Below the pieces are notes generated by a model. That model was not told where the DNA came from, did no database searches, and was given only the letters and a program-made list of their open reading frames with translations. From assembly GCA_965233585.1 (NCBI GenBank), contig CBDDTI010000295.1, positions 1 through 64,000 of the forward strand: a stretch of DNA of 64,000 nucleotides. Direction: 5' to 3'. Of this stretch, positions 48,389-59,424 are shown piece after piece (positions within the stretch are counted from its first letter, which is position 1; each line of letters begins with the position of its first letter). The position numbers and the translations under genes are program-made. This DNA comes from a bacterium (GTDB lineage Bacteria; SAR324; NAC60-12).

Positions 48389-49489
48389 ATGCCTGAATCT
48401 ATCCTTATTGTTGACGATCAAGAAAACAATCGTTTGGTCATTGAAGATGCCTTGCGAAAAAGAAATCTTGACTTCTCCCATGCCTCTAGTGGTGAAGAAG
48501 CATTAAACATGCTCAATGCTCAAACACCTGACGTGATCTTGATGGACCAAATGATGCCCGGTTTAAGTGGCATTCAAACCATTGGACAAATTAAGCAACA
48601 AGAAAGGCTGATGGATATACCCATTTTGATGATCACAGCCCGTGATGACACGGCAACACTCAAAAAAGCATTTGATGCAGGGGCATCAGATTACATTGTC
48701 AAACCCATAGAACCTGTTACACTCAATGCCCGAGTCAGTGCGGCATTGAAAACAAAATTTGCACTGGAACAAGAAAAGACATTGACCAAAGAATTGGAAA
48801 GTCAAAAGCGTGAGCTTTCCAAATTTGTGCATGTCGTCAGCCATGATCTGAAGTCTCCCGCCGCCAGCGCTGCCAGTTTGTTTAACTTCTTCCTGTTCCG
48901 TATCAAAACAGACTATCCTGACCTAGTCAACAATCCAGACTATCAAGAAATTTTGCAACGGATACCAAGCTCATTGCAGCGCATGTTAGATTTTGTTGAT
49001 GTGACTTTGGAATATGCCACAGCAGGCAAAACAGTTGGCAAACTCGTACCAACGCCAATGCAAGACATTGTCAATGAAGTACTACAAGACCTTGCAGATG
49101 CTCTCAACCAACCATTGATTTCTATTGAGATACAAGATGATTTTCCTGAAGTTTTGTGTGATTCTTTGAAAATCAAGCAAGTCTGGCAGAATTTACTTGC
49201 AAATGCGGTCAAATACCGTGTGAAAGACCGAATGACTCATTTGCATTTAGGTTGGAAAGAAAGCGGGACAGGCTATGCGTTTTGTGTGCAAGATAATGGT
49301 GTTGGCATTCCAGAAGATGCCAGAGAAAGCATTTTTGAACCCTTTGTCAGACTAGATAATTCACAAGAAGGTTCAGGAGTAGGGCTTGCCACCGTGCAAC
49401 AAATTATCGTTGCTCATCAAGGTCAAATTTCTGTTGACCCAAATTACACACAAGGCACAAGAATTTGGTTTACACTGGCTCGGTTGTAG
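48389..49489 (+). CDS. Hybrid response regulator / sensor histidine kinase
   Basis: REC domain (ILIVDD, DQMMP, KP) + SHDLKSP, NLLANAVKY, DNGVGI and GSGVGL motifs. Confidence 0.95.
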   Translation: MPESILIVDDQENNRLVIEDALRKRNLDFSHASSGEEALNMLNAQTPDVILMDQMMPGLSGIQTIGQIKQQERLMDIPILMITARDDTATLKKAFDAGASDYIVKPIEPVTLNARVSAALKTKFALEQEKTLTKELESQKRELSKFVHVVSHDLKSPAASAASLFNFFLFRIKTDYPDLVNNPDYQEILQRIPSSLQRMLDFVDVTLEYATAGKTVGKLVPTPMQDIVNEVLQDLADALNQPLISIEIQDDFPEVLCDSLKIKQVWQNLLANAVKYRVKDRMTHLHLGWKESGTGYAFCVQDNGVGIPEDARESIFEPFVRLDNSQEGSGVGLATVQQIIVAHQGQISVDPNYTQGTRIWFTLARL

Positions 49490-49533
49490 TTGTCTTAATT
49501 CTTTTCATTCATCACAAAATCTAAACTCATCTT

Positions 49534-50307
49534 ATGAGACCACTTCAGAAAATTATAGAGTCTTCTAAGGTTCAGAAAGTCATCATTGCTCTCATCGTCA
49601 TCAATGCCATCATTCTTGGAATTGAAACGATTGAGATGCCCGAAAATTTATACACATTTTTTGTTTGGATAGATCATTTGATTCTGGCAGTTTTTGTTCT
49701 GGAGATTGTTGCTAAACTACTGGTGTATCGCTTTGCATTCTTTAAAAATTTTTGGAATCTTTTTGATTTAGCGATTGTGTCCATTTCACTTGTTCCTTCA
49801 GCTGGAGCATTATCGGTCTTACGTGCATTGCGTGTGTTGAGAGTCTTGCGTCTGATTTCTACGGTATCCAGCTTGAGACGCGTGATTGAGGCACTCATTC
49901 GTTCTATACCAGGTCTAGGCTCTGTCACAATTATCATGGGCTTGATCTTTTATGTGTTTGCTGTCATTGGAACAAACCTATATCAAGATGATTTTCCCCA
50001 ATGGTTTGGCAGTTTAGGCAAGACGATGTACAGCCTGTTCCAAATTATGACACTAGAAAGCTGGTCAATGGGCATTGTGAGACCTGTGATGGAAAAATTC
50101 CCGATGGCTTGGTTTTTCTTTATTCCCTACATTCTTATCACCACTTTCACCATTGTCAATTTGTTCATTGCCATCATTGTCAGCTCTATGCAAGAACATA
50201 CAACAGAAGAAGATGCACAGCAAAAAATTGACCTAGAAAAACGACTTGACACAATGGAAAAACGGATTTTAGAAGAATTACAAAAATCTTTGAACTTGAA
50301 AAAATAG
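49534..50307 (+). CDS. Bacterial voltage-gated sodium channel (BacNav)
   Basis: Six TM segments, S4 RALRVLRVLRLIS and selectivity filter TLESWS. Confidence 0.95.
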   Translation: MRPLQKIIESSKVQKVIIALIVINAIILGIETIEMPENLYTFFVWIDHLILAVFVLEIVAKLLVYRFAFFKNFWNLFDLAIVSISLVPSAGALSVLRALRVLRVLRLISTVSSLRRVIEALIRSIPGLGSVTIIMGLIFYVFAVIGTNLYQDDFPQWFGSLGKTMYSLFQIMTLESWSMGIVRPVMEKFPMAWFFFIPYILITTFTIVNLFIAIIVSSMQEHTTEEDAQQKIDLEKRLDTMEKRILEELQKSLNLKK

Positions 50308-50625
50308 TGTCATTCCAACAGGTGCAGAAAAATTAGACAAAGTTCTTGTTTCAGGTTAGTCTTGCTGGGTTTCATAACACCTGTGAATGATGACTTAAAC
50401 AATCACATCACACAGAATCACTGGCTTACAAAAAACTCTTTTTTGAGAAATTCCAGAATTTTGTCTTTTAGATAGAAGTTTGTTAGGCTGTGTGAATGAA
50501 AACTTTTTTACCGCTTACTTCATTTTTAGCTTGATGGATTTAACAAATGGCATCACATACCCTCATTGACTCCTGACAACAACACATGCAGAAAACTTTG
50601 GTTTTTTCTTTTTTAGGAATTTGTT

Positions 50626-50805
50626 ATGAGAGACGTTTTTTTACAACAAATGAACGCATGCCTTGCTGGAATTGGAGGAGGTTTTGCGTATCTGCTAAGC
50701 AATCAAAGAGAGTTTACAGTGGAAGTCATAGCGGGAATGGCTTGTCTAACCATAAGCTATGTACTGCTATACTTCAAAATTCAAAACATAAAGGAGGACA
50801 AATGA
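50626..50805 (+). CDS. Small 2-TM hypothetical protein (59 aa; not in the ORF track)
   Basis: AGGA RBS; MRDVFLQQMNACLAGIGGGFAYLLSNQREFTVEVIAGMACLTISYVLLYFKIQNIKEDK. Confidence 0.55.
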   Translation: MRDVFLQQMNACLAGIGGGFAYLLSNQREFTVEVIAGMACLTISYVLLYFKIQNIKEDK

Positions 50806-50891
50806 CAGGATATTTTATGCTAGGATTGATCATCATATTTTCATCAATCTGTATTCACAATGCAATCAAAAACGGAAAGAAAAAAGACTAA
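50802..50891 (+). CDS. Small 1-TM peptide (29 aa)
   Basis: AAGGAGG RBS and ATGA overlap with the previous stop; MTGYFMLGLIIIFSSICIHNAIKNGKKKD. Confidence 0.55.
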   Translation: MTGYFMLGLIIIFSSICIHNAIKNGKKKD

Positions 50892-51064
50892 GTCTTAGGA
50901 TTATCTGACTTGGTTTTTTTAATCTTCCTAAATCAACAGCATGAAACAAATCATCTAATTGATCAGGTATCAGATCATACGCATGTCTTTGTCCAATCTG
51001 ATAATCAGTCAAATGAAGTTGACATCATTTAAATAAATCGGTTATCTTTGTTGATTTTTACAAA

Positions 51065-51925
51065 ATGTCTCACTTGACTCCCATAGACTATACTACCCCA
51101 GATGCCAGTCAACGATTTGTAGAGTCGTTGTATCATACTGGTTTTGGTGTTTTGAAAAACCACCCACTTTGTATTGATGAAGTCCAGTTGATTTATCAGC
51201 AATGGCATACGTTTTTCCAAAGTGATGAAAAGGAACGTTACCAATATAACCCTGAAAAGATGGACGGCTTCTTCTCAACTCAAATTTCTGAAACAGCCAA
51301 AGGACACAAGACAAGAGACATCAAAGAGTATTATCACTACTATCCTTGGGGCAGGTGTCCTCCACAGCTTAAAGACATCACACATCGTTATTATGAATCT
51401 ACCAAACTTTTTGCTCAAAAATTACTTGGTTGGATAGAGGAACATTCACCAAAAGAGGTGAGGGAAAGGTATAGTATTCCACTTTCACAAATGCACTCTG
51501 ACAATACTTTACTGAGAATCTTGCACTACCCCCCCCTGCCAGAAGAAAGAAAACCAGATGCTTTGCGTGCTGCTGCCCATGAAGACATCAATCTCATTAC
51601 CATTTTGCCAGCATCAAATGAGCCGGGTTTGCAAGTCAAAACCAAAGATGGTGAGTGGCTGCCAATCCCTTGCGATTTTGGAAACTTGATTGTAAACATT
51701 GGAGACATGTTACAAGAAGCATCAGGGCGATACTTCCCTTCTACTTCGCACCGTGTCATCAATCCTGAGGGTATGGACAAACGCAAGTCTCGTATTTCAT
51801 TGCCACTTTTTTTGCATCCAAATAGTGATGTAGTCTTGTCTGACCAGTACACTGCAGGCAGTTATTTGGAAGAAAGGCTCAAAGAATTGGGAGTCAAGGC
51901 ATCAAGTGCTGGTCAAGATAGTTGA
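51065..51925 (+). CDS. 2OG-Fe(II) oxygenase, isopenicillin N synthase family
   Basis: TGFGVLKNH, LLRILHYP, AHEDIN (HxD), NIGDML, STSHRV and RISLP motifs. Confidence 0.93.
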   Translation: MSHLTPIDYTTPDASQRFVESLYHTGFGVLKNHPLCIDEVQLIYQQWHTFFQSDEKERYQYNPEKMDGFFSTQISETAKGHKTRDIKEYYHYYPWGRCPPQLKDITHRYYESTKLFAQKLLGWIEEHSPKEVRERYSIPLSQMHSDNTLLRILHYPPLPEERKPDALRAAAHEDINLITILPASNEPGLQVKTKDGEWLPIPCDFGNLIVNIGDMLQEASGRYFPSTSHRVINPEGMDKRKSRISLPLFLHPNSDVVLSDQYTAGSYLEERLKELGVKASSAGQDS

Positions 51926-51943
51926 TAAAATTGATAAAATTGA

Positions 51944-51973
51944 TTGACAAAGATGACTTTGCCAATCTATAAT
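51944..51973 (+). promoter_or_regulatory. Putative sigma70 promoter of the BMP gene
   Basis: TTGACA-N18-TATAAT, directly preceded by tandem TTGATAAAA repeats. Confidence 0.7.
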
Positions 51974-52020
51974 CCATCACTCTTTATTTATTGTTAACCT
52001 TATTTCTAAACAGGTATCAA

Positions 52021-53025
52021 ATGAAATTGATTAAGCATATTGTGAAGCTCTCGCTCATCGGGGGCTTGGTTGGGTCTGTCGCTTCTGCTGAGGAATTCAA
52101 ACCGGCAGTCATTTATGACGTAAGTGGCAAGCATGATAAATCTTTTGGCGAGGCTGCCTATAACGGGGCAGAAAGATTCAAAAAGGACACCGGAATCAAA
52201 TACAAAGACTTTGAACCGAGTAAACCAATCCAGATTCAACAAACAATGGAACGTTTTGCCAAGAGGAAATATAGCCCCATTGTGGGCGTTGGCTTTATCC
52301 TTGGACCAATCATGGAAGGAGTGGCAAAAAAGTATCCAGATGTTTCTTTTACCGTGATTGATGCAGTGGTTGATTTGCCTAACGTGCAGTCTGTTCTTTA
52401 CAAGGAACACGAAGGGTCGTTTTTGGTTGGAATGTTAGCCGCGATGAAGTCCAAGACAGGGGTTGTAGGTTTTGTTGGAGGTATGGACATTCCAACTATT
52501 AAGAGGTTTGGTTGTGGATACGAACAAGGAGCCAAGCATGTCAATTCTAACATGCAAGTGATCCATAACATGACAGGTACAGACCATACGGCTTGGAGTA
52601 ATCCGACTCGTGCAGGGGAGTTAGCAAGGGCACAGTTTCAGAAGGGTGCAGATGTCATTTTTGCTGCTGCTGGGGGGTCTGGCTTGGGTGTCTATCAGGC
52701 GGCTAAAGAAGCTGGCAAATATGCAATCGGCGTGGATAGCAACCAAAATTATCTACATCCCGGGACGATGCTGACTTCTATGGTCAAAAGGGTAGACGTT
52801 GGTGTTTACAATTCTTTTAATGATTCCCATCAAGGCAAGTTTCAAGCGGGGGTTGTCACACTCGGTTTGAAAGAAGATGGGGTCGGTTGGGCATATGATC
52901 AATACAACAAAGACTTGATTACAGCTGAAATGAAAGCAAGCGTAGAACAAGCCAGAAAGGACATTATCAGTGGCAAAGTCAAGGTGGTTGACTACATTGC
53001 CAATAACAACAAATGCACCTATTGA
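52021..53025 (+). CDS. BMP/PnrA-family ABC substrate-binding protein (nucleoside-type)
   Basis: DKSF, EHEGSFLVG, GFVGG, GADVIFAAAG, AIGVDSNQ and SMVKRVD motifs. Confidence 0.94.
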   Translation: MKLIKHIVKLSLIGGLVGSVASAEEFKPAVIYDVSGKHDKSFGEAAYNGAERFKKDTGIKYKDFEPSKPIQIQQTMERFAKRKYSPIVGVGFILGPIMEGVAKKYPDVSFTVIDAVVDLPNVQSVLYKEHEGSFLVGMLAAMKSKTGVVGFVGGMDIPTIKRFGCGYEQGAKHVNSNMQVIHNMTGTDHTAWSNPTRAGELARAQFQKGADVIFAAAGGSGLGVYQAAKEAGKYAIGVDSNQNYLHPGTMLTSMVKRVDVGVYNSFNDSHQGKFQAGVVTLGLKEDGVGWAYDQYNKDLITAEMKASVEQARKDIISGKVKVVDYIANNNKCTY

Positions 53026-53218
53026 CTTGACCCAAGCCTGTGTCTTCTCAAAAGTCTCTTGGGATTTTGAGAAAGGTTTAGTGTATCAATCTTTTTTTTC
53101 AGAGGCAGCAAATTAACATCATGCTGTCTTTGGAAATCCACCGAAGCGTCAAATGTTGCAGTGGCAACTCATTAAGCTCTGCAACTATCTACAACCATAA
53201 AAACATGTTGAACAAGCC

Positions 53219-54088
53219 ATGAATCAAAAACAACTACAAGAGAGTTTTCAAAACTTCCATCATGCTGGTTACTGCGTGATAGAAGATGTAGTACCTCAGC
53301 AAGAGTGTCAAAGACTTCAAAAAGAAATAGGTTTGATTGTTGACGGATTTGACACTGATGAAATGGTCTCTGTTTTTAGTGGCAGCGACAAGAAAAAGAG
53401 GAGTGACCAATATTTTCTGACATCAGGAGATACCATTCGTTGCTTTTTTGAAGAAAAGGCATTTGGCAGCGATGGTCAAATGCTGAAAGCCAGAAAAGAA
53501 TGTATCAACAAAGTCGGACATGCGTTGCATGATTTGAACCCTCAATTTGAGTCGTTCTCTTATTCTCACACCATCTCTGAGATTGTGGAACATCTGCCCT
53601 TGAAAGTCCCTCAGATTATCCAGTCCATGTATATTTTCAAACAACCGCGTATTGGTGGGGAGGTTCGCTGCCATCAAGATAGCACCTACTTTCTGACTGA
53701 CCCTTTAAGTGTTGTTGGTTTATGGTTTGCGTTGGAAGATGCTACGTTAGAAAATGGTTGTTTATGGGCAATCCCTGGAGGGCATCACCAGCCTTTGAAA
53801 GAAATCTTTAAAAGAACAGAGGACAATTTGAGTGGATACCATGAAGAACTTGACAGTTCAAGCTGGGACACAGAACAAGCGATTCCTTTGGAAGTGCCTC
53901 AAGGGAGCTTAATCGTCTTGCATGGGCAACTGCCACACTTTAGCAAAGACAATCTTTCTGCAAAAAGTCGTCATGCCTACACGCTCCATTTGGTAGATGG
54001 CTCTGCTCATTATCACGAAACTAATTGGTTGCAACGTCCCAACATCCCTATCCGAGATTTTAAAACGGTTGCCAACTCTCTCACTTAA
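53219..54088 (+). CDS. Phytanoyl-CoA dioxygenase family protein (PHYHD1-like)
   Basis: YFLTSGDTIRCFFEE, INKVGHALH, QSMYIFKQPRIGGEV..HQD, WFALEDATLENGCL and NWLQR motifs. Confidence 0.92.
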   Translation: MNQKQLQESFQNFHHAGYCVIEDVVPQQECQRLQKEIGLIVDGFDTDEMVSVFSGSDKKKRSDQYFLTSGDTIRCFFEEKAFGSDGQMLKARKECINKVGHALHDLNPQFESFSYSHTISEIVEHLPLKVPQIIQSMYIFKQPRIGGEVRCHQDSTYFLTDPLSVVGLWFALEDATLENGCLWAIPGGHHQPLKEIFKRTEDNLSGYHEELDSSSWDTEQAIPLEVPQGSLIVLHGQLPHFSKDNLSAKSRHAYTLHLVDGSAHYHETNWLQRPNIPIRDFKTVANSLT

Positions 54089-54185
54089 TTTGCTCAGATT
54101 TGTTGAGTCCTGTCTAAAAATGACGGAGTCAATTTTTTGAGTTTAAACTACCAATCTACAAATTCCCATTCATTGCTAAAAAGCT

Positions 54186-55739
54186 ATGTCTTCGTCTCTT
54201 GCGATTGAACTGGTTGACGTCTGTAAAACATTCGGTCAGGTGGCTGCTAACAGGAAGGTTCACCTTCAAGTTGAACAAGGGACAATTCACGGCATCATTG
54301 GAGAAAATGGTGCGGGCAAATCTACTTTGATGAATATCCTATATGGCTTTTATCAAGCAGATGGTGGACAAATCAGAGTTCATGGAAGGGAAGTCACCAT
54401 GACAAGCCCCAAAGATGCTATTGAAATTGGGATTGGAATGGTGCATCAACATTTCATGTTGGTAGAGAATTTGACTGTTTTGGAAAATATCATACTTGGT
54501 ACAGAACAAAGCGTTTTGATTCGTCAAAACTTCAAACAAGCAAGACAGGTTCTTGATGAAATTGAGAAGCAATATGGTCTGTCTGTAGATTTAGAAACAA
54601 AGGTAGAAAATCTGTCTGTTGGCGCTCAACAACAAGTAGAAATCCTCAAAACACTTTACCGACAATCTAAAATACTCATTTTAGATGAACCCACTGCGGT
54701 TTTGACACCACAAGAAAGTGAAAAACTTTTTAAAATACTAGAAGCCCTCGCCAAAGGTGACGTGACTGTCATTCTCATCACGCATAAACTCAAAGAAATT
54801 ATGGCAATCACAAATCACGTCACAGTGATGCGTGCGGGTGAAGTCGTGATGAACTCCCCTACTTCTTCAACCAATATAGAAGATCTGGCAACTGTTATGA
54901 TTGGTCGCAAACCCCATACAGAACGTCAGCATAAGCAAAATATTGCCAAAACACTTAAATTCCACGTAGAGGGTCTTTCTTATTCAGACAAAAGGGGTGT
55001 TCAACTCCTGAAAAACATCAATTTAAAAGTCCATACAGGTGAAATTGTAGGAATTGCAGGAGTTTCTGGTAATGGTCAAAGCGAGCTTTTGGAGGTTTTG
55101 ACAGGAATGACCCCTTTTGGAAGTGGGTCATTGACACTGCATCACCAAGACGGTTCTACTACTACCATCACGCCACAGCAACCGATGACTCCCAAGCTGA
55201 TGAGGCAACTCAAAGTGGCACACCTTCCAGAAGACAGACTGAAAACAGCCATCATTAAAGACTTTTGGGCAACTGAAAATGCCATCTTAGGCTATCAGGA
55301 CAACAAAATTTACAATCAAGGTTTATTGATGAATCAAGCCAGTATCTTGGAGGACACCAAAAACAAAATGCAAAATTTTGATGTGCGACCTAGTAATCCT
55401 TGTTTATTGATGAAACATTTTTCTGGTGGCAATCAGCAAAAATTAGTCATTGCCAGAGAATTGTCAGCAAAGCCTGATGTCATCATCATTGGACAGCCCA
55501 CAAGAGGGGTGGATATTGGAGCGATTGAGTTCATTCACGACCAAATGATTCAGATGCGTAACAGTGGCGTTGCTATCATTCTTGTCTCTGTGGAACTAGA
55601 TGAAATCAAGGCACTTTCAGACAGAATTGTCGTGATGTGTCAAGGAGAAATCACAGGTGAAGTCTCTGCCCAAGATGCAGATGAGCAAACTCTTGGGTTG
55701 ATGATGGCAAACGCACTCAAAAGAAAAGAAACAGCATGA
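54186..55739 (+). CDS. Nucleoside/sugar ABC transporter ATP-binding protein (two ABC domains)
   Basis: GENGAGKST, MVHQHF, GVSGNGQ, SGGNQQK and QPTRGVD motifs. Confidence 0.95.
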   Translation: MSSSLAIELVDVCKTFGQVAANRKVHLQVEQGTIHGIIGENGAGKSTLMNILYGFYQADGGQIRVHGREVTMTSPKDAIEIGIGMVHQHFMLVENLTVLENIILGTEQSVLIRQNFKQARQVLDEIEKQYGLSVDLETKVENLSVGAQQQVEILKTLYRQSKILILDEPTAVLTPQESEKLFKILEALAKGDVTVILITHKLKEIMAITNHVTVMRAGEVVMNSPTSSTNIEDLATVMIGRKPHTERQHKQNIAKTLKFHVEGLSYSDKRGVQLLKNINLKVHTGEIVGIAGVSGNGQSELLEVLTGMTPFGSGSLTLHHQDGSTTTITPQQPMTPKLMRQLKVAHLPEDRLKTAIIKDFWATENAILGYQDNKIYNQGLLMNQASILEDTKNKMQNFDVRPSNPCLLMKHFSGGNQQKLVIARELSAKPDVIIIGQPTRGVDIGAIEFIHDQMIQMRNSGVAIILVSVELDEIKALSDRIVVMCQGEITGEVSAQDADEQTLGLMMANALKRKETA

Positions 55740-56848
55740 GCAGCGCCAAGAAAGTCACGCCTCTACCTTCTTACATAGATTACTTTGTCTTACCTCTCAT
55801 TAGCATCGCACTATCCTTCTTTTTTGCAGGGTTGGTCATTCATCTTGTCATTGGCGAAGACCCGATGGAGGCTTTTGGCTATATGTTTACTGGTGTCTTT
55901 GGTTATAGTGAAGGGATTGGATACACGCTTTATTACACCACTAATTTTATTTTTGCAGGATTGGCATTTTGTGTCGCATTTAAAGCATCAATGATCAACA
56001 TCGGTGCTGAAGGACAAGGTTATATTGCTTCTTTAGGAGCATCGGCTGTGATTTTATCAATAGACCAGACTTTGCCTAGTTTGATAGTGATTTTGCTCGG
56101 TATGACTAGTGCTGTGGCATTTGGGGCATTTTGGGCATTTGTACCCGGATACCTTAAAGCAACCAGAAGCTCCCACGAAGTCATCACAACCATCATGTTC
56201 AATTTCATTGCCAATGCTTTGGTGCTTTATGTCATTGTCAATTTTCTAATTCCTGAGGGTTCAGAAAGCACTGTCAGCAGAAAATTTGAACCTGATGTGT
56301 GGCTTGTGGACATGCAAACTATCTTGAGCTGGTTTGGTTTTGAAACTGACAAAACACCTGCAAACCTCAGCTTTTTCATGGCACTACTTGTTGCATTTTT
56401 ACTCTGGATTTATGTTTACAAGACACGATTTGGTTTTGCGATTCGTACGGTGGGGCAAAGTGAAAATGTTGCCAATTATGCAGGGTTAGACACCAAACGT
56501 GTCCAAGTGACTGCCATGTGTATCAGTGGCGGACTAGCAGGAATGATGGCAATCAATGCAGTCATGGGCAGTCAACACCATATGATGTTAGAAATTGTTG
56601 CAGGTGAGGGATTTGTTGGGATTGCAGTGGCATTGATTGGTCGCAATCACCCTTTGGGAATTATCCTATCGGCACTGCTCTTCGGTTTTTTGTATCAAGG
56701 CGGGACAGAAATGTCTTTTGAATTGAGCAATATCTCCAAAGAAATGGTCATCGCCATTCAGGGAATGATTGTGTTTTTTGTGGGAGCTTTGCCATTAGCA
56801 TTTAAAGCACCAATAACCAAAATTTATCATCGCTATTTGACACGCTAA
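55736..56848 (+). CDS. Nucleoside ABC transporter permease
   Basis: NIGAEGQ, HEVITTIMFN and GIAVAL.GRNHP motifs. Confidence 0.93.
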   Translation: MSSAKKVTPLPSYIDYFVLPLISIALSFFFAGLVIHLVIGEDPMEAFGYMFTGVFGYSEGIGYTLYYTTNFIFAGLAFCVAFKASMINIGAEGQGYIASLGASAVILSIDQTLPSLIVILLGMTSAVAFGAFWAFVPGYLKATRSSHEVITTIMFNFIANALVLYVIVNFLIPEGSESTVSRKFEPDVWLVDMQTILSWFGFETDKTPANLSFFMALLVAFLLWIYVYKTRFGFAIRTVGQSENVANYAGLDTKRVQVTAMCISGGLAGMMAINAVMGSQHHMMLEIVAGEGFVGIAVALIGRNHPLGIILSALLFGFLYQGGTEMSFELSNISKEMVIAIQGMIVFFVGALPLAFKAPITKIYHRYLTR

Positions 56849-56868
56849 CCGCCAGCCAAGCTATCTAA

Positions 56869-57846
56869 ATGTTTGAATTATACACAGCATTTTTGCAAAC
56901 CATTGATGCAACATTCAGGCTGTCAACGCCCCTAATTTTGGCATCTATGGCTGGGTTATTGTGTGAACGTTCTGGAATCATCAACATTGGTTTGGAAGGC
57001 AAAATGCTGGGGTCTGCTTTCGCTGCGGCAGCTGTTGCCAGTTTAACTGGAAGTGTCTGGCTTGGCATGTTGTCTGCGATGACGCTGGGAGTCATCTTGG
57101 CATTATTGCATGGACTGGCTTGCATCACTTACAGAGGAGACCAAATTATCTCTGGGGTTGCTATCAATATGCTGATGAGTGGCTTCACTGTTTTGATGAG
57201 TCTTGCCATCTTTTCAACATCTGGTACGACCCCCCAACTTTCAGGAGAAGCTCGCTTTAACCCAATCGGACTTCCATTTGCAGAAGTTTTTGGTAAGATT
57301 CCCGTCCTTGGTCCTATCTACCAAGAAGTCATTTCTGGGCATACCTTCCCAGTTTATGCGGCTTTTCTTTCGGTTGGCGTAGTCGCTTGGGTACTGTATC
57401 GGACGACGTTCGGACTGCACTTACGAGCTGTTGGAGAAAATGCCCAAGCCGTAGAAACTGCTGGAATTTCTGTGTACAAAACAAGATATATGGCATTGGT
57501 GGGGTGTGGCATTTTATGTGGTATTTCAGGGAGCTATTTATCTACTGCACAAAATGCTCAATTTTTAAGAGAAATGAGTGCAGGGCAGGGATACATGGCT
57601 CTGGCTGCTCTCATCTTTGGAAAGTGGCGCCCCAGAACGACACTATTCGGTTGCTTACTCTTTGGGTTTTTAGATGCCCTCTCAGTGCGTTTACAAGGCA
57701 CGTCTTTGCCCTACATGGGCGAAATCCCAGTACAGCTTATCCAAGTACTGCCCTACTTGCTCACCGTCGTTTTATTAGCAGGATTCATTGGCAATGCCAT
57801 TGCTCCTAAAAACATTGGACAGCCCTACGAAAAACAGGCGATTTAA
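56869..57846 (+). CDS. Nucleoside ABC transporter permease
   Basis: ERSGIINIGLEG, LRAVGE, ALAALIFGKWRP and LPYLLT motifs. Confidence 0.93.
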   Translation: MFELYTAFLQTIDATFRLSTPLILASMAGLLCERSGIINIGLEGKMLGSAFAAAAVASLTGSVWLGMLSAMTLGVILALLHGLACITYRGDQIISGVAINMLMSGFTVLMSLAIFSTSGTTPQLSGEARFNPIGLPFAEVFGKIPVLGPIYQEVISGHTFPVYAAFLSVGVVAWVLYRTTFGLHLRAVGENAQAVETAGISVYKTRYMALVGCGILCGISGSYLSTAQNAQFLREMSAGQGYMALAALIFGKWRPRTTLFGCLLFGFLDALSVRLQGTSLPYMGEIPVQLIQVLPYLLTVVLLAGFIGNAIAPKNIGQPYEKQAI

Positions 57847-57896
57847 AGTTAGGAGAGAGGAACGTTTGGAGGAAAATTTGAAAAGGGAAAAAAGGG

Positions 57897-57925
57897 AATG
57901 GCAACGATTGAACATTGCCATTTTG
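57897..57925. terminator. Hairpin between convergent genes (possible bidirectional terminator)
   Basis: AATGGCAA-loop-TTGCCATT followed by a T-run. Confidence 0.5.
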
Positions 57926-57945
57926 TTTGAAAGTCTTGAAGTCTT

Positions 57946-59424
57946 TTAACGTTTCATATTGACCATCGTGTCAATCATTTCATCAGACACAGTCACCGTC
58001 TTCGCATTCGCTTGGAAGGCACGTTGTGTCTCAACCATCGCTACAAATTCCTTAGCAAGGTCAACGTTGGATTCTTCAAGAGTTTGATTACGTGTAACAC
58101 CAAAGCCACCCACACTCGGATTGCCTTTTGAGATACGACCTGCCGCCAGGGAACGTTCAAACAGGTTATCTCCCGCTTTGGTCATTTTTTCTGGATTGTC
58201 AAAAGCCGTGAGCGAAAGCATGCCCATCGGTCTTCGGTGTCCGCTGTCAAATAATCCTTGAATGATGCCATCAGAGGTGACAGAAATGCTTTCTAATGTT
58301 CCGCTGGGGTGTCCATCTGCTTTGATTGCAAGAACTTTGGAAGCTGAGGCAAATTGTGTTACGCCTTCAAGACCCGTTCTTTCGTCAAGTGGGTCATCAG
58401 GGTTTGAGCCTTTTCCAAGATTAACCCCAATAATTTGTGGAGCATCTCCGCCAAAATCTACAACAACTTGTGGAAATCCCGTTTCAGGGTTCACAGGAGC
58501 AGGTTGTAAGATGGGAGGACCTGAAGTAATCGGTTGCCCCGTGGCAGGATCCACTCCCGAAGTTTGTGCCACAAACTGACCTCCTGTTGTTTGAAGCAAA
58601 CGACCATCATCATCAAATTGCAAAAATCCTCCACCGACAGCAATTTTTTGACCGGGACGCTGTCCCAAATCACCACCATCAAAAGTCATATACCATTCCC
58701 ATTGATTCTTGACTCCGGGGGTGGTTTGTCCTGTGGCAGGGTCTGTTTGGGGTGGCACATCAGGTCGTCTTCTGAAGACAACATTTGCGGTGTGTTCTGC
58801 CCCAAGGTCGTCAAACACTGTGACACTTGATGCAAAGTTGTACATGTGGCTTTTGACATTGGTTGGGTCAAATGGAGTGTCGCGAATAGGAGAGTTAGAA
58901 TCTAGGTTTGCCACAGCGGTCACACCACTACCAAACGAGCCATCGCCTGTGCGTTGAGGCGGATCCACCACTCCTAACACTTGCAATTTGTGGGGTAATC
59001 CAACAGCTTCATCTGTCTGGGGGTCTACATCCTGCACCTGAACAAAAAGCCCTCTGTCAGTGGTCAGCATGCCATTTTCATCAAATGTAAAATTTCCTGC
59101 TCGTGTGTAAAATTCCTTGCCAAAGCGGTCTTGCACTGTAAAAAACCCTTTGCCATTGATGGCAAGGTCTGTTTGCTTGTCAGTCATTTTAAATGACCCT
59201 TGTTTAAAACTGGCATTGACGCTGGAGATTCCAACACCTTTGCCAAGTTTTGTAGGACCAATGCCTTGTGAAAAGTCTGATGATAGAATGTCTTCAAAGT
59301 CCACACGGCTCCCCTTGTAACCGACAGTGTTGACATTTGCAATATTACTACCAACAACAGTCATGGTACGACCCATCGTACTCACACCGCTTGCTCCTGC
59401 TCCTAATGCTCCAAGTAATGCCAT
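57946..59424 (-). CDS. flgE: Flagellar hook protein
   Basis: NIANVNTVGYK, DLAING.GFF, YTRAGNF and LEESNVDLA.EF motifs. Confidence 0.95.
   Translation of the reverse strand: MALLGALGAGASGVSTMGRTMTVVGSNIANVNTVGYKGSRVDFEDILSSDFSQGIGPTKLGKGVGISSVNASFKQGSFKMTDKQTDLAINGKGFFTVQDRFGKEFYTRAGNFTFDENGMLTTDRGLFVQVQDVDPQTDEAVGLPHKLQVLGVVDPPQRTGDGSFGSGVTAVANLDSNSPIRDTPFDPTNVKSHMYNFASSVTVFDDLGAEHTANVVFRRRPDVPPQTDPATGQTTPGVKNQWEWYMTFDGGDLGQRPGQKIAVGGGFLQFDDDGRLLQTTGGQFVAQTSGVDPATGQPITSGPPILQPAPVNPETGFPQVVVDFGGDAPQIIGVNLGKGSNPDDPLDERTGLEGVTQFASASKVLAIKADGHPSGTLESISVTSDGIIQGLFDSGHRRPMGMLSLTAFDNPEKMTKAGDNLFERSLAAGRISKGNPSVGGFGVTRNQTLEESNVDLAKEFVAMVETQRAFQANAKTVTVSDEMIDTMVNMKR

Follow-up and report, generated by a model that had tools for sequence, protein, structure and literature searches.

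The window analysed here, 64,000 nucleotides of a SAR324 bacterium (contig CBDDTI010000295.1, positions 1 to 64,000), carries at 51065..57846 six genes that encode, in order, a 2-oxoglutarate (2OG)- and Fe(II)-dependent oxygenase with the fold of isopenicillin N synthase (IPNS), a binding protein of the PnrA/BMP family, a second dioxygenase of the PhyH family, and the ATPase and two permeases of an ATP-binding cassette (ABC) importer. We propose that this locus serves to recover nucleosides released by RNA breakdown and to unblock any that are unusable for ordinary enzymes. The importer would take up the nucleosides. The PhyH-family enzyme, a member of the PHYHD1 clade, would then use O2, 2OG and Fe(II) to hydroxylate the 2′-O-methyl group, leaving a plain nucleoside and formaldehyde, while the separately promoted upstream enzyme, of the SO_2589 family, would oxidise another, probably pyrimidine, nucleoside. 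For the latter we tentatively favour the conversion of dihydrouridine to uridine, either through desaturation or through a hydroxylation that is followed by dehydration. Finally, products of unlinked genes would free the ribose (a Rih-type hydrolase), phosphorylate it (ribokinase) and remove the formaldehyde (a glutathione-dependent route), a flux that we infer from the genes. Import and the two oxidations together, with the substrate of the second left unfixed, make up a reading that we regard as reasonably probable. Import and 2′-O-demethylation are known kinds of activity; new are the presence of both oxygenases at one importer, which recurred in none of 80 and 75 other loci searched from the two sides, and a substrate clue given by dusA.

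The PhyH-family protein belongs to the PHYHD1 clade

The protein encoded inside the transporter cluster (53219..54088, + strand, 289 aa; PF05721 PhyH) matched human PHYHD1 with an E-value of 1.6e-61, and no other PhyH structure did better than 1e-11. Its iron triad, H152/D154/H240, is intact and was invariant in 15/15 aligned bacterial members. We compared it by eye, not by a joint tree, with the enzymes studied in PMC12709175, a report used here through passages of its main text and its Table S2. In this mapping, the docking-based ribose contacts of the human enzyme (K102, H105, Q139 and W277) correspond to K98, H101, Q135 and W270, and the stacking aromatic residue F161 to Y157. The purine-contacting S154 corresponds to R150; this position is not a defining one because T, V, P and K occur there among the active enzymes of Table S2. 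By these sequence measures the window protein is a true PHYHD1-clade member, sharing the metal triad, the ribose-contacting residues and an aromatic residue at the stacking position with human PHYHD1 (PDB 2OPW/3OBZ) and its orthologues. It differs from these eukaryotic and viral proteins in that its gene is bacterial and lies inside an importer operon.

The passages of PMC12709175 describe PHYHD1 orthologues as demethylating free 2′-O-methyl nucleosides, not nucleotides or RNA, with activity published for animal, plant, fungal and viral members. An earlier note on this DNA had pointed to such reported activity of PHYHD1-like enzymes; the published work bears this out, and the window protein falls in the same clade. 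By analogy, we consider it highly probable that the window enzyme demethylates 2′-O-methyl nucleosides. There are good grounds for this assignment, because the protein has, by eye, the eukaryote-type motifs of Table S2, whereas the bacterial enzymes assayed in that report (FJS, Acidisoma, Sphingomonas and Poribacteria) belong to another subgroup with other motifs, without the INKxGHALH and QSMYIFK segments. A keyword search of the main text found no mention of genomic context or gene neighbours.

We examined the neighbourhoods of the best 80 of at least 570 PHYHD1 homologue loci. A nucleoside ABC importer lay within 7 kb in 9/80 of them (by record title, seven alphaproteobacterial and two actinobacterial), and the six annotated in detail had cdd, PNP, deoC, deoA, add, upp, amn or a 5′-nucleotidase gene nearby. 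For instance, one operon reads ABC-cdd-PNP-deoC-deoA-PHYHD1-5′-nucleotidase (locus L016) and another amn-PHYHD1-BMP-ABC-PNP (L083). Among relatives, a BMP gene was found about 16 kb from the PHYHD1 orthologue in 2/8 widened loci. In one relative (L127:7663-15243) the PHYHD1 gene is convergent with a cluster that encodes M20 peptidase, carbamoyltransferase, kinase and xanthine-dehydrogenase-like domains, a neighbourhood also present in L022.

The importer is of the PnrA/BMP nucleoside type

The binding protein (52021..53025, + strand, 334 aa counted from the ATG, with an alternative start at 51991; PF02608 Bmp), an ATPase of the sugar/nucleoside importer type with two nucleotide-binding domains (54186..55739, + strand; two ABC_tran domains) and two PF02653 permeases (55736..56848, sharing 4 nt with the ATPase gene, and 56869..57846, both + strand) make up the parts of a PnrA/BMP importer. 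The binding protein begins with a signal-peptide-like stretch that has no Cys. Its best solved relatives are Lbp 7X0R (E 9e-53), BmpD 6SHU and PnrA/TmpC; the portions consulted of the respective papers describe guanosine bound in the Lbp crystal (PMC9601137) and adenosine bound to BmpD (PMC7093131). The Bmp domain, the double-domain ATPase and the two PF02653 permeases are common to the window importer and the systems of PnrA/TmpC (Treponema), BmpD (Borrelia) and Lbp (Clostridium thermocellum), but the window binding protein is without the lipoprotein Cys and a dioxygenase gene stands between the binding protein and ATPase genes.

Orthologues of the binding protein at 54-55% identity occurred in 11/40 relatives, and in 3/4 orthologous loci examined (L135-L137) the slot between the BMP and ATPase genes, taken here by the PhyH gene, holds an IU nucleoside hydrolase gene. 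Besides this hydrolase, importer orthologues cluster with genes for adenosine deaminase (L132), udk (L121), rbsK-rih (L178) and cdd (L283), all of nucleoside catabolism, and the nearest binding proteins among those aligned (60%) are encoded in nucleoside operons (L217 and L083). The family parts, the PDB matches and the neighbours of the orthologues thus agree with the BMP/PnrA-type nucleoside importer named in the earlier note, and from family and neighbours it is very probable indeed that these proteins take up nucleosides. A vitamin B6 importer was considered and rejected, as the NCBIfam scores were far under the cut-off (73.9 vs 400 for the binding protein).

Upstream lies an oxygenase of the SO_2589 family

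The first gene of the locus (51065..51925, + strand) encodes a 286-aa protein with PF14226 and PF03171 domains, in which the HxD...H and RxS motifs are intact (H172, D174, H229 and R243). It matched the structure of SO_2589 of Shewanella oneidensis (PDB 3ON7) over its full length in both sequence (E 1.4e-115, ~60% identity) and fold (TM 0.89; model pLDDT 92.6), by which it is a member of the SO_2589/3ON7 family. It differs from SO_2589 in that its gene adjoins a nucleoside importer. IPNS entries gave only partial matches (E about 5e-6); we rejected IPNS in the strict sense for want of close full-length similarity, the name being a fold label.

Homologues are mostly 62-68% identical, the named ones coming from marine gammaproteobacteria, and the family is present in 34/301 gammaproteobacterial genomes sampled and in 33/401 of the phylum. 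The ESM Atlas returned only this same, unnamed family, and a metagenome scan with the single oxygenase sequence returned one weak locus. The part consulted of PMC10467617 lists 3ON7 among enzymes with undefined function. We found no assigned function for SO2589, 3ON7 or 3OOX, with or without reference to dusA, and no 2OG-dependent dihydrouridine oxidation, in a literature search whose coverage stopped short of most subscription journals and bioRxiv supplements. Tandem diverged pairs of family members occur in two genomes, G731 and G734 (L295:5596-7382 and L296:5595-7322), which suggests split substrate ranges. An oxygenase of the CC_0200/3OOX type (E 1.6e-92) heads an oxygenase-udk-BMP-ABC array in another genome (L121:6986-13389, G008), and this sister family may share a pyrimidine nucleoside role.

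Both in profile comparison (E 8e-27) and in fold, the closest characterised protein was thymine 7-hydroxylase (T7H) of Neurospora crassa (PDB 5C3P-5C3S; PMC4787775). An enzyme of this kind, oxidising the 5-methyl group of thymine, 5-methyluridine or 5-methylcytidine, would fit this nearest characterised relative and the shared metal and 2OG ligands, together with T7H residues E122, R190 and F292, which are kept as E88, R151 and F249. At ~23% identity, however, the T7H substrate sandwich is not reproduced: Y217 and N294 are replaced by I175 and H251, and the position of N87 is variable. No isoorotate decarboxylase partner was identified among the neighbours of the family, one divergent Amidohydro_2 gene at L196 aside, and a far closer bacterial relative of T7H forms a separate subfamily. 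We therefore regard a 5-methyl oxidase as the least probable of the alternatives considered. The closer relative is a bacterial 2OG oxygenase encoded directly upstream of a BMP gene (L139:7372-9390, G001), whose best solved relative is fungal T7H (E 1e-63) and which is a candidate bacterial T7H; L213 and L214 have comparable oxygenase-BMP pairs.

SO_2589-family genes recur beside nucleoside genes and dusA

We analysed 75 SO_2589-family loci (36 + 32 from two draws, 6/14 plasmid-collection matches and one relative). A co-oriented nucleoside gene was the direct neighbour in 17/75 of them, compared with 10/547 other genes in those loci, a ratio that is overstated because the reference set was drawn partly from the neighbours observed. 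The background in the gene-dense part of the window's own genome was 8/3639 genes, used in preference to the 8/6074 obtained when gene-poor contigs are included. Among the 17 linked loci, five adjoin dusA and five udk-nupC; three are ABC operons that include a Rih-type hydrolase, two have rbsK-rih, and nupC and pnuC account for one each. Their gene orders include ABC-rbsK-rih-oxygenase (L178/L217), ABC-rih-oxygenase-cdd (L272) and rbsK-rih-oxygenase-BMP-ABC-cdd (L283), the last with the same oxygenase-BMP adjacency as in the window. Outside the 17, purN (2 loci), an acid phosphatase gene (2), a divergent phosphorylase-like gene (1) and a dusA 3 kb off (1) were seen beside family members.

The upstream oxygenase could be a chance neighbour unrelated to nucleosides, in which case the locus would be an ordinary nucleoside ABC operon with a PHYHD1 gene. 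The oxygenase gene has promoter-like sites of its own on the 5′ side and of a second unit on the 3′ side, most family loci are solitary, and the orthologues in two relatives had no nucleoside neighbours in the DNA examined. Against this, the nucleoside contexts recur in differing builds, with the salvage label changing 9 times on a fast tree of the family, and include the oxygenase-BMP pair of L283; the rows nearest to the window protein on this tree, whose quick method does not settle the deep branches, are udk-nupC-linked, without strong support. Chance adjacency is thus quite improbable, and it is probable that the SO_2589-type enzyme oxidises a nucleoside other than that of the PHYHD1-clade enzyme, the udk, cdd and Rih-type hydrolase neighbours pointing to pyrimidine ribonucleosides. 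The IPNS-like enzyme, whose substrate the earlier note left open, need not be a demethylase; the genes beside it suggest rather a pyrimidine such as dihydrouridine.

The most specific clue to the substrate is dusA, encoding tRNA dihydrouridine synthase (profile above the cut-off), which stands directly upstream of the oxygenase gene in the dusA-linked loci. We found this pair in 5/11 gene-bearing genomes of one order, 2/2 of a second, 1/4 of a third and in G196, that is, in nine genomes of at least four orders (five among the 75 loci and four from targeted searches). In the five dusA loci read widely the remaining neighbours differ, and all five genomes have uridine kinase. Dihydrouridine is an abundant tRNA modification, and dihydrouracil is expected to leave poorly in hydrolase reactions. 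Either desaturation of C5-C6 or its hydroxylation with subsequent loss of water is within reach of a ferryl intermediate. The best single candidate reaction, put forward tentatively, is the oxidation of 5,6-dihydrouridine to uridine. Slightly more tentative still is its extension, in which the SO_2589/3ON7 family as a whole would be a 2OG-dependent dihydrouridine oxidase and the locus would pair the unblocking of ribose-methylated and ring-reduced nucleosides at a single importer. A fungal dihydrouracil oxidase (PMC9585004, consulted in part) would bring about the same net 5,6-desaturation, but it acts on the base and is of a dihydroorotate-dehydrogenase-like family unrelated to 2OG oxygenases.

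Alternatively, the SO_2589-type enzyme might be a second, non-orthologous demethylase of 2′-O-methyl or base-methylated nucleosides that duplicates or complements PHYHD1. The hydrolase, kinase, deaminase and transporter neighbours would suit such an activity, O-demethylases occur in this fold class, and PHYHD1 was present in only 8/68 family-positive genomes, as replacement would predict, although this overlap stands without a control from family-negative genomes. A demethylase leaves the dusA pair unexplained, and both enzymes are present in this genome as well as in G041, G394 and G624. We consider this alternative unlikely, but the strongest of those weighed against dihydrouridine oxidation.

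The distribution of deoC bears on another alternative, a 2′-hydroxylase of pyrimidine deoxynucleosides that would make ribonucleosides of them and so feed ribose-specific hydrolases and uridine kinase, like the fungal thymidine salvage route via thymine ribonucleoside cited in the part consulted of PMC4787775. In its favour, deoC is missing in all 11 rih/udk/nupC-linked genomes and was not found here, whereas 46/57 others have it. In one class draw, however, 23/34 family-positive and 10/80 family-negative genomes carried deoC (the first 80 of 267 negatives; kin are not independent), and with deoC in 46/68 family-positive genomes overall the enzyme would be mostly redundant. Moreover, deoC is present in all 9 dusA-linked genomes, the kinship-corrected test of deoC absence comes down to 3 supported independent pairs and is not significant, and deoC-less genomes are expected to carry hydrolase-route genes anyway. 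Such a hydroxylase is thus improbable, slightly more so than a chance neighbour, and dihydrouridine oxidation is kept as the favoured reaction.

Gene arrangement and transcription units

All six open reading frames (ORFs) are intact and co-oriented and have the expected Pfam domains, confirming the gene order given in the earlier note; the intergenic gaps are 95, 193, 97, -4 and 20 nt. In two public runs, both from one study that may have supplied the assembly itself, single contigs span 49400-59000 with zero differences, and a misassembly at the locus was rejected. A promoter-like site, TTGACA-18-TATCTT, lies 5′ of the first oxygenase gene (51019..51048, +; a sequence match of 10/12), and a perfect sigma-70 consensus, TTGACA-18-TATAAT, at the head of the transporter genes (51944..51973, +; 12/12). 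By a hand estimate, a perfect site would turn up by chance in this region with a probability of ~1%; overall, the promoter scan gave no excess (13 sites vs 15.5 in shuffles), nor did terminator-like sites (4 vs 6.7). Because the consensus site separates the oxygenase and BMP genes, the oxygenase probably has its own transcript, and the likely units are this single gene and a five-gene operon, BMP-PhyH-ATPase-permease-permease. Of the two dioxygenases described earlier as interleaved with the transporter, only the PhyH gene is truly so; the IPNS-like gene is merely adjacent.

An 11-bp hairpin predicted by RNA folding between the BMP and PhyH genes (53100..53132, +) is possibly an mRNA-stabilising or attenuating element, and no Rfam match was found in 50200-58000. 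A further hairpin (57897..57922) is the likely end of the unit; the convergent gene beyond it looks, by its sequence, like a flagellar hook gene. On the other side, 757 nt upstream of the locus, 49534-50307 encodes an apparently unrelated Ion_trans protein resembling bacterial voltage-gated sodium channels. Next comes a 101-codon ORF without a Pfam match (50586-50891), but the true gene may instead be a shorter hydrophobic frame from about 50802 with a good ribosome-binding site.

Downstream metabolism

The window's own genome contains a Rih-like hydrolase, ribokinase, frmA, fghA and one Dus gene. Its sole phosphorylase-family match is an MTA/SAH nucleosidase, and there are four phosphoribosyltransferase matches, one without a name. 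A dihydropyrimidinase above the cut-off was not found in this genome (92.5% complete). Since uridine kinase and UPRT were likewise not found, ribose harvesting is likelier than simple pyrimidine nucleotide salvage. Thus, of the earlier proposal that methylated nucleosides are imported and demethylated for salvage, the importer and the PHYHD1 clade are supported and nucleotide salvage is doubtful.

Elsewhere in the genome (L140, G000:C746:276000-295000), a second BMP ABC system stands before one gene each of the polysaccharide-deacetylase and arginase families and before frmA and fghA, possibly for purine or ureide use beside a formaldehyde sink. About 6.9 Mb of the assembly (G000) is in contigs >5 kb with <50% ORF cover, as against 4.7 Mb that is gene-dense, and on C248 a match to thymidine kinase comes in exon-like pieces; non-bacterial DNA is probably part of the 12 Mb assembly.

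Evidence weighing on the proposed pathway

Several of the findings weigh against the pathway as a whole. A bacterial PHYHD1-clade protein is absent, by eye, from the tested sequences of Table S2 of PMC12709175. By the tests used, 71/80 PHYHD1 loci (many of them from related Acidobacteria or on short contigs) and 58/75 SO_2589-family loci were without a nucleoside link, and the neighbour ratio of the latter family is inflated as described. Among relatives, PHYHD1 orthologues occurred in 12/40, none with a transporter gene within 1.5 kb. PHYHD1 was found in 0/75 SO_2589-family loci and an SO_2589-type gene in 0/80 PHYHD1 loci, and the internal promoter-like site at 51944..51973 sets the first oxygenase apart from the transporter genes. 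A single ancient event may lie behind the dusA pair, a point that the tree does not settle, and searches of the genome, at its 92.5% completeness, did not find udk, upp, deoC or psuG. On the other side, nucleoside linkage recurs for each oxygenase separately (9/80 and 17/75 loci), so that the lack of conserved linkage by which the earlier note would have been refuted is not what we observed, even though no other locus examined showed all six genes in this arrangement.

Significance

The PHYHD1 half of the locus provides a bacterial operon setting for an enzyme activity described in 2025, in a clade whose bacterial members seem not to have been assayed. The SO_2589 half matters more: its family, whose crystal structure dates from 2010 and which has no assigned function, can now be approached with a small set of candidate substrates. 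If its members oxidise dihydrouridine, they would supply a missing step in what becomes of a major tRNA modification and add to the picture of RNA recycling by marine and host-associated bacteria. If the enzyme is instead another demethylase or a deoxynucleoside hydroxylase, a missing salvage enzyme would still have been named.

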